The position numbers and the translations under genes were made by a program. Below, in pieces: positions 12,079 through 58,036 of a stretch of 64,000 bases of DNA. The stretch is from Escherichia phage vB_EcoM_11B_SA_NWU: the sequence record OR062527, one strand, 5' to 3'. The notes under the pieces are model-generated. The model made no database searches. It saw only the letters and a list, made by a program, of their open reading frames with translations, and was not told where the DNA came from. Each line of letters opens with the position of its first letter. Position 1 is the stretch's first letter.

Positions 12079-12115
12079 CTACTATACTATAACATTTTTA
12101 CCTTAGCCTGTAAAC
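12079..12115 (-). promoter_or_regulatory. T4-type early promoter upstream of the srd-like gene
   Basis: GTTTACAGGCTAAGGTAAAAATGTTATAGTAT. Confidence 0.5.
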
Positions 12116-12172: not shown

Positions 12173-12775
12173 TTATAGATTAAATCCTTCAAAATCAAGA
12201 GTATAGATAGTGTATGTTGAATACTTTTTATACTCATATCTATCTGCAATTCTAAATACACTTCCAGCTGGTATCATTACTTCTTGTTCATCTGAAACTA
12301 ATTACATATTACGATAGCGATGGCTATCCGGAAACTTAAAGCTTGGATTGTATTCTTTACAGCGTAGAGCTTTTATAGCATACTCCTGGAAATTGAATAC
12401 CATAGGAGCTTTGAATTCAAAAATAACTTGTGTGTTATACTCTAAACCGGAAGCAAAATGTAGAGCTATATTTTTATCATATGAAGCTGATACTACTTTA
12501 TCAAATGTAATAATATCAATTCCTTGATTTAACACCTGCTTAGTCTCAGCTGGAACACCTCTCCAAAGAGGTTTATCGTTTGGTTCCAAACGAGATTTGA
12601 TTATTTCATTTAACCAAGTATGGTCATCTGGCTTATTAGTAATACAATGAATTAAAAGTTCAATTTCGGATAAATTAAACCCTTCAGAAAGTAATTCTTC
12701 ACGAATAGAAGCACGCACCGATGCATCCATTGATTTGATTTTAAAATCATTTAATTGCATTACTGAGTATTTCAT
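12173..12775 (-). pseudogene. modA: modA ADP-ribosyltransferase interrupted by an in-frame TAA (157-aa product; catalytic motif lies after the stop)
   Basis: ORF stops at TAA 12302-12304; the same frame continues LVSDEQEVMIPAGSVFRIADRY... for 42 codons, giving 200 codons in total; compare modB HEQEWMVPIG. Confidence 0.6.
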
Positions 12776-13407
12776 TCAACTACCTCAATATCATAAACTT
12801 TAAATGTTCCAAATGAATCATGCAATTTTTCTTTTGAAATAGAAGTTATTTTATACTTTCCAATTGGAACCATCCATTCTTGTTCATGTACAATCATCAT
12901 TAAGTTATCAGTGCGTTCTGAATCTAATCCATCAGTATCTTCATATGTATACTTGAACTCAGTATTTGGAGAAGAAAGTATAATATCGCTGATATGGTCA
13001 GAGTAATTAAAAGCTTTATCAGTTTTTAATCGAAATATTGTTTCAGTGAAATATTCAGCATAAGAAAAAGAGCATGCTGTATGCAAACTAGTAGTAAATG
13101 AATCTACCCTGTTCGTTGAAAACACTTCTCCAACTTGTAAATCTTTAATGAGTTCTTTTGTTGATTTTGATATACCACGATATAACTGATAAGGCGATTT
13201 AGTTAAATGCTTTTTAACGATTTTATTCAACTGCCGATGAAGAGCTTCATTCTTTTTAGCTTCCATACATTGCCAAAGAATTGACTGCTCGAAGTCAGTA
13301 AATTTTTCACAGACCTTTTTATACATATCATATTGAAAATCAACGCTTTCAGCTTTTATAGATAACTGTTCAACATCTGCTGGATTAATAATCATGATAG
13401 CCTCCAT
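12772..13407 (-). CDS. modB: ModB ADP-ribosyltransferase (211 aa)
   Basis: ART motifs: Arg (YRGISK), STS-like (SFTTSL) and E-x-E (HEQEWMVP); early promoter at 13420-13451; synteny. Confidence 0.7.
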   Translation of the reverse strand: MEAIMIINPADVEQLSIKAESVDFQYDMYKKVCEKFTDFEQSILWQCMEAKKNEALHRQLNKIVKKHLTKSPYQLYRGISKSTKELIKDLQVGEVFSTNRVDSFTTSLHTACSFSYAEYFTETIFRLKTDKAFNYSDHISDIILSSPNTEFKYTYEDTDGLDSERTDNLMMIVHEQEWMVPIGKYKITSISKEKLHDSFGTFKVYDIEVVE

Positions 13408-13419
13408 ATACTTCAGAAG

Positions 13420-13451
13420 CTATCATATCATTGTTAAGAAGGAAAGTAAAC
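13420..13451 (-). promoter_or_regulatory. T4-type early promoter upstream of modB
   Basis: GTTTAC, 17 bp spacer, ATATGAT. Confidence 0.5.
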
Positions 13452-14953: not shown

Positions 14954-15288
14954 TCACAAGATGTAGATGAACAACTAGAATCACAAGAACTTCCACATGA
15001 ATCTCCCGTCCACACATGAACAGGAACATTTGTATCATATGAATCAGAACTAGACTGTGTATTCTGTGTGTTAGATGATGCAGTAGGTACTGACCAACGC
15101 CAAGGATTTTTATAATATTCTTGGGCTTCTTCATAAGTCATAGTAACTGCTTCTACTGTTCCATCTCCCATATAAACATATTCAACTACAGTTAAAGGAA
15201 GATAGTCATTTGAAATCGGAACTACACCTTCTCCCGGAGTTGTAGAGAAAAAATCTAACAGACTTTTAAACCAATTAAAAATAAACAT
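14950..15288 (-). CDS. hypothetical protein with Cys/Ser-rich C-terminus (112 aa)
   Basis: Minus-strand ORF; C-terminus [18 protein letters not shown]. Confidence 0.5.
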
Positions 15289-43374: not shown

Positions 43375-43839
43375 TTAAAATGCTCGGTCAGAAAAAGAAA
43401 TTTGAGTTTCAAGCCATTCAATATATTCTGCCGCAGCTTGCATCAAATTTCCTTCGTAATCATCAATATCTTTTTTCAACGCCGATTTAGCTAATGCGTA
43501 TGAAATACGTTCACCTTGAAAACCGGCTTTAGGCTTCTGAACAACTTGATTAGTTCGCTCTACAACTTCTTCAATTTCGCCATTTTCGACTGATTCAGTA
43601 TTCCACAAACACCAATACGTAATTGGCTTATCGTAGATGTTAATAATCTTTCCATCAGAAAGTTCAATTTCAATAATTCCAGTATCAGGTTCTATATCAT
43701 CTTCACATTCTTTTGCAAGTTCACGAACTTTAAAGACAGTACCTGCACTAAGTTCCGGCCAGTAATTACACAGCCCTGTATCAGCACGATTAATTCTAAA
43801 CCACTTATCTACTGTAATCATGTCCCATCTCCATATCAA
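43375..43839 (-). CDS. pin-region protein (about 150 aa; start at Met1 or Met7)
   Basis: ORF upstream of 49, in the position of T4 pin. Confidence 0.4.
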   Translation of the reverse strand: MIWRWDMITVDKWFRINRADTGLCNYWPELSAGTVFKVRELAKECEDDIEPDTGIIEIELSDGKIINIYDKPITYWCLWNTESVENGEIEEVVERTNQVVQKPKAGFQGERISYALAKSALKKDIDDYEGNLMQAAAEYIEWLETQISFSDRAF

Positions 43840-55663: not shown

Positions 55664-55837
55664 TTAAATGTTGTTTTCAATAAAATTTTGAAGCTTTGTG
55701 TGAGCATCAACCATGATTTTCATTTCTTCTTTGGCGAAAGCTGTACCTCTTTCCCGAGCAGAATACTCATAGTCAGAAACTGCATTAGCATATTCTTCAA
55801 TTAGCTTCATTAAAAACATCTGCTTTTCAGTTTTCAT
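55664..55837 (-). CDS. micro-ORF (57 aa)
   Basis: Hand-translated MKTEKQMFLMKLIEEYANAV...; AGGTGG Shine-Dalgarno. Confidence 0.45.
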   Translation of the reverse strand: MKTEKQMFLMKLIEEYANAVSDYEYSARERGTAFAKEEMKIMVDAHTKLQNFIENNI

Positions 55838-56021
55838 TATTCCACCTAATCATTTCAAGATATTGAACTAACTTAGCTTTAGATTTATCCAAATCCCTTT
55901 TAGCTGTTTCTATACCATCGTATGAATATCCTTCGCAATGCTCAACTGCTAATTGGTATGAATCTATTTCAATATCACGTGCTAATTTAATGATTTTTTC
56001 AAACTGTTCACGTGTCAGCAT
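55827..56021 (-). CDS. small helical acidic protein (64 aa)
   Basis: MLTREQFEKIIKLARDIE... Confidence 0.5.
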   Translation of the reverse strand: MLTREQFEKIIKLARDIEIDSYQLAVEHCEGYSYDGIETAKRDLDKSKAKLVQYLEMIRWNNEN

Positions 56022-56023
56022 AC

Positions 56024-56227
56024 TTAAACTCTCGTATTATGATCGATAATTTCATCAAGAAACATATCTAAAGCTTCTACAGCATTATCAACTTTATCTT
56101 CAAGTTCATCAATACCTTTATTCGCAATACCTGACGAAAACCAAGCAAAGTCGCTAAGTTCCTCATCTGCTTTACGAATTAAAGCTACCAATTCTTTAAT
56201 CTTATCCGCTTGTTCTACACTAATCAT
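56024..56227 (-). CDS. small helical acidic protein (67 aa; start at internal Met)
   Basis: [19 protein letters not shown]...; TAATG overlap with the upstream stop. Confidence 0.45.
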   Translation of the reverse strand: MISVEQADKIKELVALIRKADEELSDFAWFSSGIANKGIDELEDKVDNAVEALDMFLDEIIDHNTRV

Positions 56228-56415
56228 TATTCCACCACATATGAAAGAGAGAATATTGCACACGCCATGTGAGTTGCAGCTTCATCACACATGTTATAAC
56301 GTTTCTTAAGAAATTCTACAAGTTCTTCACTAGTAATTTCATCCATGTCGACGAAAAAATCGCCATTAATGATGACAAAAATATTTCCTTCTTGATTGAG
56401 TGCTTCAATTTTCAT
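56227..56415 (-). CDS. small protein (62 aa; start at internal Met)
   Basis: GAGGAG Shine-Dalgarno; the track extension reads through the promoter at 56438-56473. Confidence 0.5.
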
Positions 56416-56437
56416 GATGTTCTCCTCTTTATCTGAT

Positions 56438-56473
56438 AGTTGTATAGTACCACAGCTCAAACGGAAAGTAAAC
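56438..56473 (-). promoter_or_regulatory. T4-type early promoter
   Basis: GTTTACTTTCCGTTTGAGCTGTGGTACTATAC. Confidence 0.5.
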
Positions 56474-56482
56474 CGGTAAAAT

Positions 56483-56506
56483 GAAAAAAGTCTCCCGAAG
56501 GAGACT
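56483..56506 (-). terminator. rho-independent terminator after rI.-1
   Basis: AGUCUCC-UUCG-GGAGACU then UUUUUUCAUUUU. Confidence 0.7.
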
Positions 56507-56510
56507 AATG

Positions 56511-56897
56511 TTATTCGAGGGAAAGAAGATATTTGCTCTGGTAAAACATCCCAGTAATATCATCTATCGTGCTTTGAATGGCCGGAGGCATTTCTTTATA
56601 AATGCTGTTAGATTGGTCTAGTATGTGATCAATCATTTTAATTGTGTCGGTAGGAAGTTTACTGGCATCTGGAATAGAAGGCGTGTATTTTCTACCAGAA
56701 TACCCCAAATATTGCTCACCAAATTTGTCAATCAAATCTGGCAACTCAGAAAAAATAAAATCGTATGCTTTGTGTCTGGCATAACTTTTAGTTTCAAAAT
56801 GTGCAGAATGAAAATAAGCTTGTGCAGCCATTAATAAACCTAAGTATTCATCTGCCTTCGAAGGTTTTCCACTTTGTGAAAAGTCGCTGAATTTCAT
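56511..56897 (-). CDS. rI.-1-like protein (128 aa)
   Basis: ORF immediately downstream of rI; terminator follows. Confidence 0.55.
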
Positions 56898-57187
56898 TCA
56901 GTCTCCAATTTAATGTTCATAATTCTAGCGTATGATTGTGCCATCTCCGCACCTCGTTCTATACATTCAAAATCAGAAGAGCACGGGTCATTTTTATAGG
57001 TCGTTCTCATAAAACTATAGAATTGTTCAGACGATTCTACGCTTTTATTTTCAAAAAGCATATAAACATGTCTAATACCAGATTCCATAAATTTATCAAA
57101 ATGAGGATCGACATTCGCTTCAATTGGTGGAGATAAAGCAAACGCTAATCCTAGCATGGCAAATAGTGCCGTTGCTTTTAAGGCCAT
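56894..57187 (-). CDS. rI: RI lysis inhibition regulator (97 aa)
   Basis: 97 aa with N-terminal signal-anchor; sequence matches T4 RI as recalled. Confidence 0.85.
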   Translation of the reverse strand: MALKATALFAMLGLAFALSPPIEANVDPHFDKFMESGIRHVYMLFENKSVESSEQFYSFMRTTYKNDPCSSDFECIERGAEMAQSYARIMNIKLETE

Positions 57188-57199
57188 AAAGGCCTCCTA

Positions 57200-57412
57200 T
57201 CATTTTTGTCCTGTATTTACTTTATGCCGATGCACGGCCTTAACTTTATCAAGGTATTTTTCAAAATTTCGCAATCTGGTATAGTCTGCCGGAGATTGGT
57301 TGAGTGATACTTCTCGACGCAAAGCTGAAATGATATTTCCAACTTCTCTACGAATTTCATCTAATTGAAGCACAGTAAGATTGCGAAGTTGCTTTTCAGT
57401 TAATTGTAGCAT
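57200..57412 (-). CDS. rI.1-like small protein (70 aa)
   Basis: Minus-strand ORF between tk and rI. Confidence 0.55.
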
Positions 57413-57454
57413 ATATACCCCTTTAGTTAGATAAACCTATTTATAACTTTTGCA

Positions 57455-58036
57455 CTAACCGAGCTTTTTAGTTAATTCATTCCAATGTTTTCTGCACAAA
57501 GAAACATAAATTTCATCACCAATACAGATTTGATTACCTTCTTTAACTGGTGTTCCATCTTCCATTAATCGAGCTGTCATAATCGCTTTTTTGCCGCAAT
57601 GACAAACTGCCTTTAGTTCAATAAGTTTATCTGCAATCGCTAAAAGTTCTTTAGAACCTTCGAATAATTTTCCAGCGAAATCAGTTCTTAATCCATAAGC
57701 CATAACAGGAACATTATATGTATCAACAATTCGGCTTAATTGGTGCACCTGTTCAGTTTTTAAAAACTGAGCTTCATCCACAAATACGCAATGAATATCT
57801 TTTTGTGCTTCAGCCCATTTATAGAACTCGAAAATATCCATATCATCTGTAATAATATTCGCTTCCTGCTTAATTCCAATGCGAGAAACGACTTCACAGA
57901 CAGAATCGCGAGTATCAATAGCAGGCTTAAGAACTAATACACCCATTCCACGTTCTTTATAATTATGCGCAGCAGTCAAAAGAGAAGCAGATTTTCCAGC
58001 ATTCATTGCTGCATAAGTAAAAATTAAACTCGCCAT
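57455..58036 (-). CDS. tk: thymidine kinase (193 aa)
   Basis: P-loop NAGKSASL; zinc ribbon CHCG...CRKH; 193 aa. Confidence 0.9.
   Translation of the reverse strand: MASLIFTYAAMNAGKSASLLTAAHNYKERGMGVLVLKPAIDTRDSVCEVVSRIGIKQEANIITDDMDIFEFYKWAEAQKDIHCVFVDEAQFLKTEQVHQLSRIVDTYNVPVMAYGLRTDFAGKLFEGSKELLAIADKLIELKAVCHCGKKAIMTARLMEDGTPVKEGNQICIGDEIYVSLCRKHWNELTKKLG

Follow-up and report, generated by a model that had tools for sequence, protein, structure and literature searches.

A premature ochre codon upstream of the catalytic E-x-E motif of modA in a T4-like Escherichia phage, and its probable modA-null phenotype

T4 mutants lacking the mod function, or both alt and mod, are reportedly viable. 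In phage T4, the ModA protein (NP_049635.1, NAD--protein ADP-ribosyltransferase; Pfam PF26816, Mod_ADP_RT) modifies both RNA polymerase alpha subunits by ADP-ribosylation of Arg265; its expression in E. coli is toxic, and deletion of its gene leaves the shut-off of early transcription unchanged (PMC2988021). ModA and ModB carry an R-S-EXE active-site motif (PMC10468400), and the E165A substitution in ModA fully abolishes ADP-ribosylation in vivo (PMC11404850).

Escherichia phage vB_EcoM_11B_SA_NWU (OR062527) originates from cattle faeces and was isolated on E. coli O177 (PMC10698182). The stretch of DNA analysed here, referred to as the window, corresponds to the first 64 kb of this T4-like (Tequatrovirus) genome. 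From rIIA onwards the window is collinear with RB51 and T4, and it displays about 95–97% identity to the nearest GenBank records. The gene order dda, dda.1, srd, modA, modB, modA.2 is that of T4, teqdroes and RB51. The gene under study is the modA orthologue, as indicated by its position between srd and modB and by its DNA sequence, which is 97.0% identical to that of T4 modA and aligns to it without gaps. Its frame runs on the minus strand from 12775 to 12173, where 157 codons ending in ...RYRNM are followed by TAA (TTA on the plus strand, 12302-12304), then by 42 further codons (LVSDEQEVMIPAGSVFRIADRYEYKKYSTYTIYTLDFEGFNL) and by the natural TAA at 12175-12173. The in-frame stretch between the premature and the second TAA reads LVSDEQEVMIPAGS...FEGFNL. 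The frame amounts to 200 sense-equivalent codons, which is precisely the size of T4 modA (603 nt, 200 codons). The earlier note, which had described a modA split by an in-frame ochre codon at 12302-12304 into 157 and 42 codons with a total of 200, was correct in all coordinates and counts, and the size that it gave for T4 ModA is the right one. The features of the locus are the following:

12302..12775, minus strand: modA 5' ORF, 157 codons and the premature TAA, encoding the helical N-terminal part with the NAD-site residues R72 and S96
12302..12304, minus strand: premature ochre TAA at modA codon 158; the variant base is plus-strand 12304, and relatives carry GAA (Glu)
12173..12301, minus strand: untranslated modA 3' remnant, codons 159-200 and the natural TAA, intact and in frame
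12281..12289, minus strand: codons for E163-Q164-E165, the catalytic E-x-E motif, downstream of the premature stop, as read from the sequence and the alignment
12560..12562, minus strand: codon for R72, the invariant Arg of the R-S-ExE signature, kept in the truncated product
12772..13395, minus strand: modB, paralogous ADP-ribosyltransferase, intact, with 207 aa counted from the T4-equivalent start and a stop that overlaps the start of modA
13422..13450, minus strand: putative sigma-70-like promoter upstream of modB-modA, TTTACT-17-TATGAT, a consensus match only
12086..12114, minus strand: putative sigma-70-like promoter between modA and srd, TTTACA-17-TATAGT with TG

The locus thus resembles that of T4 in position and in its 603-nt frame, and R72, S96, E163 and E165 are all encoded; it differs at codon 158, which is GAA in T4 and TAA here, with a product that ends before E-x-E. 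If the promoter-like site upstream of srd is real, srd has a start signal of its own, so no polarity would be expected from the modA stop.

We examined codon 158 at base level in 19 other loci (T4, teqdroes, RB51, NiC89, UFV10, four IMG/VR contigs, nine metagenome contigs and one scaffold), and it is GAA in every one of them, so that the sense codon for which the earlier note proposed to look in related phages is indeed present. Aligned at the DNA level to T4 and teqdroes, the window shows no gaps and has its TAA opposite GAA (Glu158); on the plus strand, position 12304 is A in the window and C in the relatives. Since all 19 comparators read GAA and the alignment contains no indels, TAA158 is a single G-to-T transversion (GAA to TAA). 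When the conceptual translation is carried through the stop, as had been proposed, it is 98% identical to a full-length ModA of the protein collection (P0002) over residues 1-200, an agreement along the entire chain that rules out a chance ORF pattern. Contigs carrying the 34-aa tail ORF were uninformative, as three of them are contig ends and the fourth (L020) contains Ns in a scaffold gap.

A 71-mer that spans the stop had no exact match in 485 GenBank phage records, the best agreement being 70/71. A 55-mer that ends at the variant base matched free of mismatches in 444 of 500 GenBank records, and among the matches listed all end at 54/54 and none reaches the variant base; in the other 56 records this allele test is not strictly decisive. 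The allele had no match in the E. coli genome set or in the genome-contig set, and no contig encoding the 157-aa product was found in the contig look-up. As judged from these searches, TAA158 appears to be private to this isolate. The 129 nt that follow the stop show no difference to NiC89 or to a metagenome locus (L010), and a single site differs from T4; the absence of decay in this tail indicates that the event is recent.

In order to delineate what the stop removes, ModA and ModB were aligned with distant relatives collected in an exhaustive profile-free search (20 ModA/ModB sequences in the family alignment, 22–60% identity). Ten columns are invariant among the 20 sequences, namely K48, R72, G73, V94, S96, F107, Y113, E163, E165 and M167, and the last three lie after the stop. 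R72, the Arg of strand beta-1, and S96 of the Ser motif both fall within residues 1-157 and are retained, whereas the catalytic glutamates E163 and E165, encoded at 12289-12281, are absent from the translated product. The suggestion that an E-x-E motif paralleling that of modB lies beyond the stop is borne out: the stop precedes E163-x-E165 by five codons, and the motif is aligned with the E-Q-E of ModB and is invariant in the family. Residue 158 itself is variable across ModA and ModB, which indicates that truncation, and not the loss of Glu158, is what matters.

The AlphaFold model of full-length ModA, obtained with an 18-sequence alignment (mean pLDDT 94.2, pTM 0.87), places the end of a helix (149-163) and three strands (165-168, 172-184 and 186-198) beyond residue 157, and the 157-aa product, which would lose these three predicted strands, lacks a complete ADP-ribosyltransferase fold. 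Foldseek searches with the model identified iota toxin Ia, C3 exoenzyme, Certhrax, HopU1 and CDTa (probability 1.0, E about 1e-5), all of which belong to the R-S-E clade of ADP-ribosyltransferases. These toxins share with ModA the fold and the R / S / E-x-E catalytic signature, but they display only 10–16% sequence identity to it and act on other targets; the iota toxin Ia structures include ones in which E378 or E380 is mutated, in keeping with a catalytic role of these glutamates. A PDB sequence search with ModA returned nothing, and the fold search was used instead; scans of ModA and ModB against Pfam-A and NCBIfam assigned no family, the Pfam copy employed probably being one without PF26816. 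Because the 157-aa product would be devoid of both glutamates and of a third of the beta structure, we infer that it is catalytically dead, and the model suggests that it is probably misfolded. The view that the phage encodes a truncated, probably inactive ModA is thus supported by the loss of E163, E165, M167 and three strands, and by the published inactivity of E165A; while E165A eliminates one side chain, TAA158 removes 43 residues.

Could the stop be an artefact of sequencing or assembly, or else a minority variant in a population whose modA is intact? The allele is unique among all comparators, and an intact, undecayed tail is also what an error would produce. On the other hand, the change is a substitution and not a homopolymer indel, and the genome of 167 kb was assembled with SPAdes from Illumina NextSeq 2x150 bp reads, nominally about 400 Mb per sample (PMC10698182). 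When all ORFs of RB51 were compared with the window, modA proved to be the sole annotated gene interrupted mid-gene by an in-frame stop; frameshift-type splits are absent from the 64 kb. Two NCBI submissions, which may share data, contain the 157-aa product (WIL78840.1 and MCC5412469.1), and it is also present in a Logan assembly. The exact dda, srd, modA, modB and modA.3 products carry consecutive accessions of vB_EcoM_11B_SA_NWU (WIL78837-78843), with the 207-aa modB product recorded exactly as WIL78841.1; all five are present in Logan assemblies and four of them (not srd) in an 'E. coli' WGS record (MCC5412466-72). Given the sequencing depth and the otherwise clean assembly, a consensus substitution error at this position is unlikely, and we regard an intact modA in the population as improbable overall. 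The truncation goes unmentioned in the description of the phage (PMC10698182), and a literature search for premature modA stops in T4-like phages revealed no mention of one.

If the stop is real, full-length ModA might still be made, as the earlier note proposed in its alternative of a protein produced only by ochre read-through or suppression. The 42 downstream codons are intact and in frame, T-even phages carry tRNA genes from which suppressors can arise by mutation, and bypassing occurs in the translation of T4 gene 60. The stop context argues against this alternative, since TAA-T is not a leaky context but the commonest terminator tetranucleotide of the window (TAAT, 29 of 113 ORFs); in E. 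coli, termination is reportedly most efficient at UAAU. TAA ends 68 of the 113 non-overlapping ORFs of the window (60%), so an efficient ochre suppressor would cause read-through of most phage genes. ARAGORN detected no tRNA in the 64 kb, and no suppressor anticodon is listed in the published tRNA tables of the phage set, tables in which no TTA anticodon appears but whose sheet labels are inconsistent, the T-even tRNA cluster being located beyond the 64 kb. The stop is, in addition, conserved in none of the 19 relatives, and the GenBank 71-mer search gave no exact match for it. From the context, the TAA usage and the published tRNA tables, read-through of modA is unlikely.

Other routes to a functional product were considered and rejected. 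The next in-frame ATG (M167, 12277) comes after E165, and re-initiation there would yield a 34-aa peptide (12277..12173) without the motif. Ribosome hopping from AUG157 to the AUG in GAUGAA would land out of frame, with a stop three codons on, and hopping to AUG167 would skip E-x-E; for a bypass of the gene 60 type, we found no matched take-off and landing codons that restore the frame together with E-x-E. Complementation between two ModA fragments can be discarded as E-x-E is in neither fragment, and a compensating third ADP-ribosyltransferase paralogue is absent from the window, which holds only modA and modB. Taken as a whole, active full-length ModA in useful amounts by suppression, read-through, re-initiation or hopping is very improbable.

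A further possibility is that the 157-aa fragment persists as a stable protein and has kept, or acquired, a function other than catalysis, such as binding of the RNA polymerase alpha subunit or of NAD. It would keep the whole helical N-terminal region with the invariant K48, R72, G73, S96, F107 and Y113, and it would still be expressed from the modB-modA early transcription unit, whose promoter is predicted. However, three beta strands, two of them of 13 residues, would be lost from a compact single-domain fold, which makes misfolding likelier according to the model, and the allele is found in one isolate with no sign of maintenance. We consider such a role to be distinctly improbable.

We favor an explanation, which we hold to be likely, in which a recent, private nonsense allele truncates and inactivates ModA and its loss is tolerated. 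A single G-to-T change would have turned codon 158 from GAA into TAA, and ribosomes terminating there would release a 157-residue fragment that keeps R72 and S96 but loses E163, E165, M167 and the last three beta strands. This fragment would be unable to ADP-ribosylate the RNA polymerase alpha subunit, rendering the phage effectively modA-null. The loss would be tolerated because ModA is dispensable under laboratory conditions and ModB is intact (alt maps outside the window), and the mutation would be recent and carried by this isolate only. Considering the sequence and the model together, the phage is very probably modA-null. The proposal of a natural modA-null variant holds in its modA-null part, given the loss of E-x-E and the unlikelihood of read-through, whereas a natural origin is only reasonable, as TAA158 may have arisen in nature or in laboratory propagation.

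The situation is comparable to that of the E165A variant of T4 ModA (PMC11404850) and of the modA deletion (PMC2988021). As in these phages and in the classical mod-minus mutants, ModA catalysis would be lost in a T-even phage that is viable; the difference is that the nonsense allele considered here is spontaneous and that the phage carrying it is an environmental isolate (from cattle faeces, with E. coli O177 as host), whereas E165A is engineered. TAA158 can be described as an ordinary knockout of a known non-essential gene that involves no new mechanism, and its value lies in annotation and in the availability of a natural mutant. The 157-aa 'hypothetical protein' should be labelled as a modA pseudogene, and vB_EcoM_11B_SA_NWU, a therapy candidate, is very probably without one of the three T4-type ADP-ribosyltransferases. 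It could serve as a ready-made natural modA-null phage in a non-T4 background for testing the contribution of ModA, including its hinted role against Mokosh type I.

TAA158 is less surprising in light of other broken modA and modB alleles in public data. A 135-aa product (P0015), reported on five contigs, corresponds to a 5-bp GTATA tandem duplication in a metagenome contig (L013; ULRM01008302.1, 130 kb, T4-like), which shifts the modA frame at about codon 113; a scan of IMG/VR for this duplication allele revealed none, though it is present in the metagenome locus. A 67-aa product (P0014) is that of a broken modA, for which the sequence suggests a +1 A insertion, and phage ELT1 carries a 54-aa modA product (P0013) truncated after KPDD. 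These alleles resemble TAA158 in being independent disruptions of the same dispensable genes, but they consist of indels or duplications elsewhere, none carries TAA158, and some may be assembly errors. The repeated disruptions are consistent with a dispensable gene whose function comes and goes by drift.

They also invite the reading that loss of ModA is selected rather than neutral, and that the public disruptions are adaptive escapes in particular hosts. This reading would cover TAA158, the 5-bp duplication of L013, the frameshifted P0013 and P0014 and the UFV10 duplication described below; if it were true, the pressure could be the toxicity of ModA or a host defence that senses ADP-ribosylation of the alpha subunit, and the phage would pay for the loss with sensitivity to Mokosh type I and similar defences. 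In this respect, the ModA orthologue of phage Bas37 was labelled in a transposon screen with a Mokosh type I host, and Alt contributes to Mokosh evasion (10.1101/2025.11.20.689424). By analogy, a conditional cost of losing ModA is plausible; adaptive loss as such we judge to be unlikely.

Several observations made on related loci are recorded here. The contig with the GTATA duplication also carries a frameshift in srd at about codon 219, and these two defects (L013:~1400-2100 and L013:4248-4984) could reflect either real decay or a lower-quality assembly. In Escherichia phage vB_EcoM-UFV10 (OP555981.1, L019:374-1075), modA is annotated with 233 aa because AIKALRC...ELVSDEQE is present twice, in an in-frame tandem duplication of 99 bp that breaks up the E-x-E region; this duplication may be an assembly artefact. 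In NiC89 (LC620505.1, L018:973-1598), the modB annotation consists of two overlapping CDS, with a frame change at codon ~26-27 in tblastn, so that disrupted forms of the paralogue occur in public genomes as well.

Within the window, a 14-pair inverted repeat (TATGATAGCTTC...GGAGGCTATCATG; 13393..13427, minus strand) covers the -10-like hexamer, a GGAGG ribosome-binding site and the modB ATG at 13395, and could sequester the modB start site in the mRNA. The mechanical modB ORF (12772..13407, minus strand) has four additional codons ahead of the T4-equivalent start (MEAI-MIINPAD); the resulting 211-aa form is not in the protein collection, while the 207-aa form is present. The RB51 scan also flagged a 'stop' in pin (inhibitor of the host Lon protease; 43375..43839, minus strand), which we discarded as a divergent 3' end and not a nonsense mutation: the C-terminus is shorter and divergent relative to RB51, with ...SFSDRAF* in the window versus ...SFSDQKIRQYKRLNQMFYNT* in RB51, the 3' end having been replaced. 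In mrh.1 (15007..15288, minus strand), residues 1-95 of the 113 of RB51 align and the C-terminal part differs.

Supplementary Table S2 of PMC10698182 lists, in the vB_EcoM_11B_SA_NWU sheet, tRNAs at 55.7-57.8 kb, where ARAGORN finds none (55700..57800); a T4-like set of 11 tRNAs at 68.9-70.6 kb stands under the label of another phage, and the sheets appear to be mislabelled. Lastly, clusters P0004, P0007, P0008, P0011, P0012, P0052 and P0092 include fragments of T4-like ModA, Srd and Dda that were submitted under the name of Enterococcus faecalis (MFP9... accessions) and come from very short contigs; they probably represent contamination of those assemblies with T4-like phage DNA.
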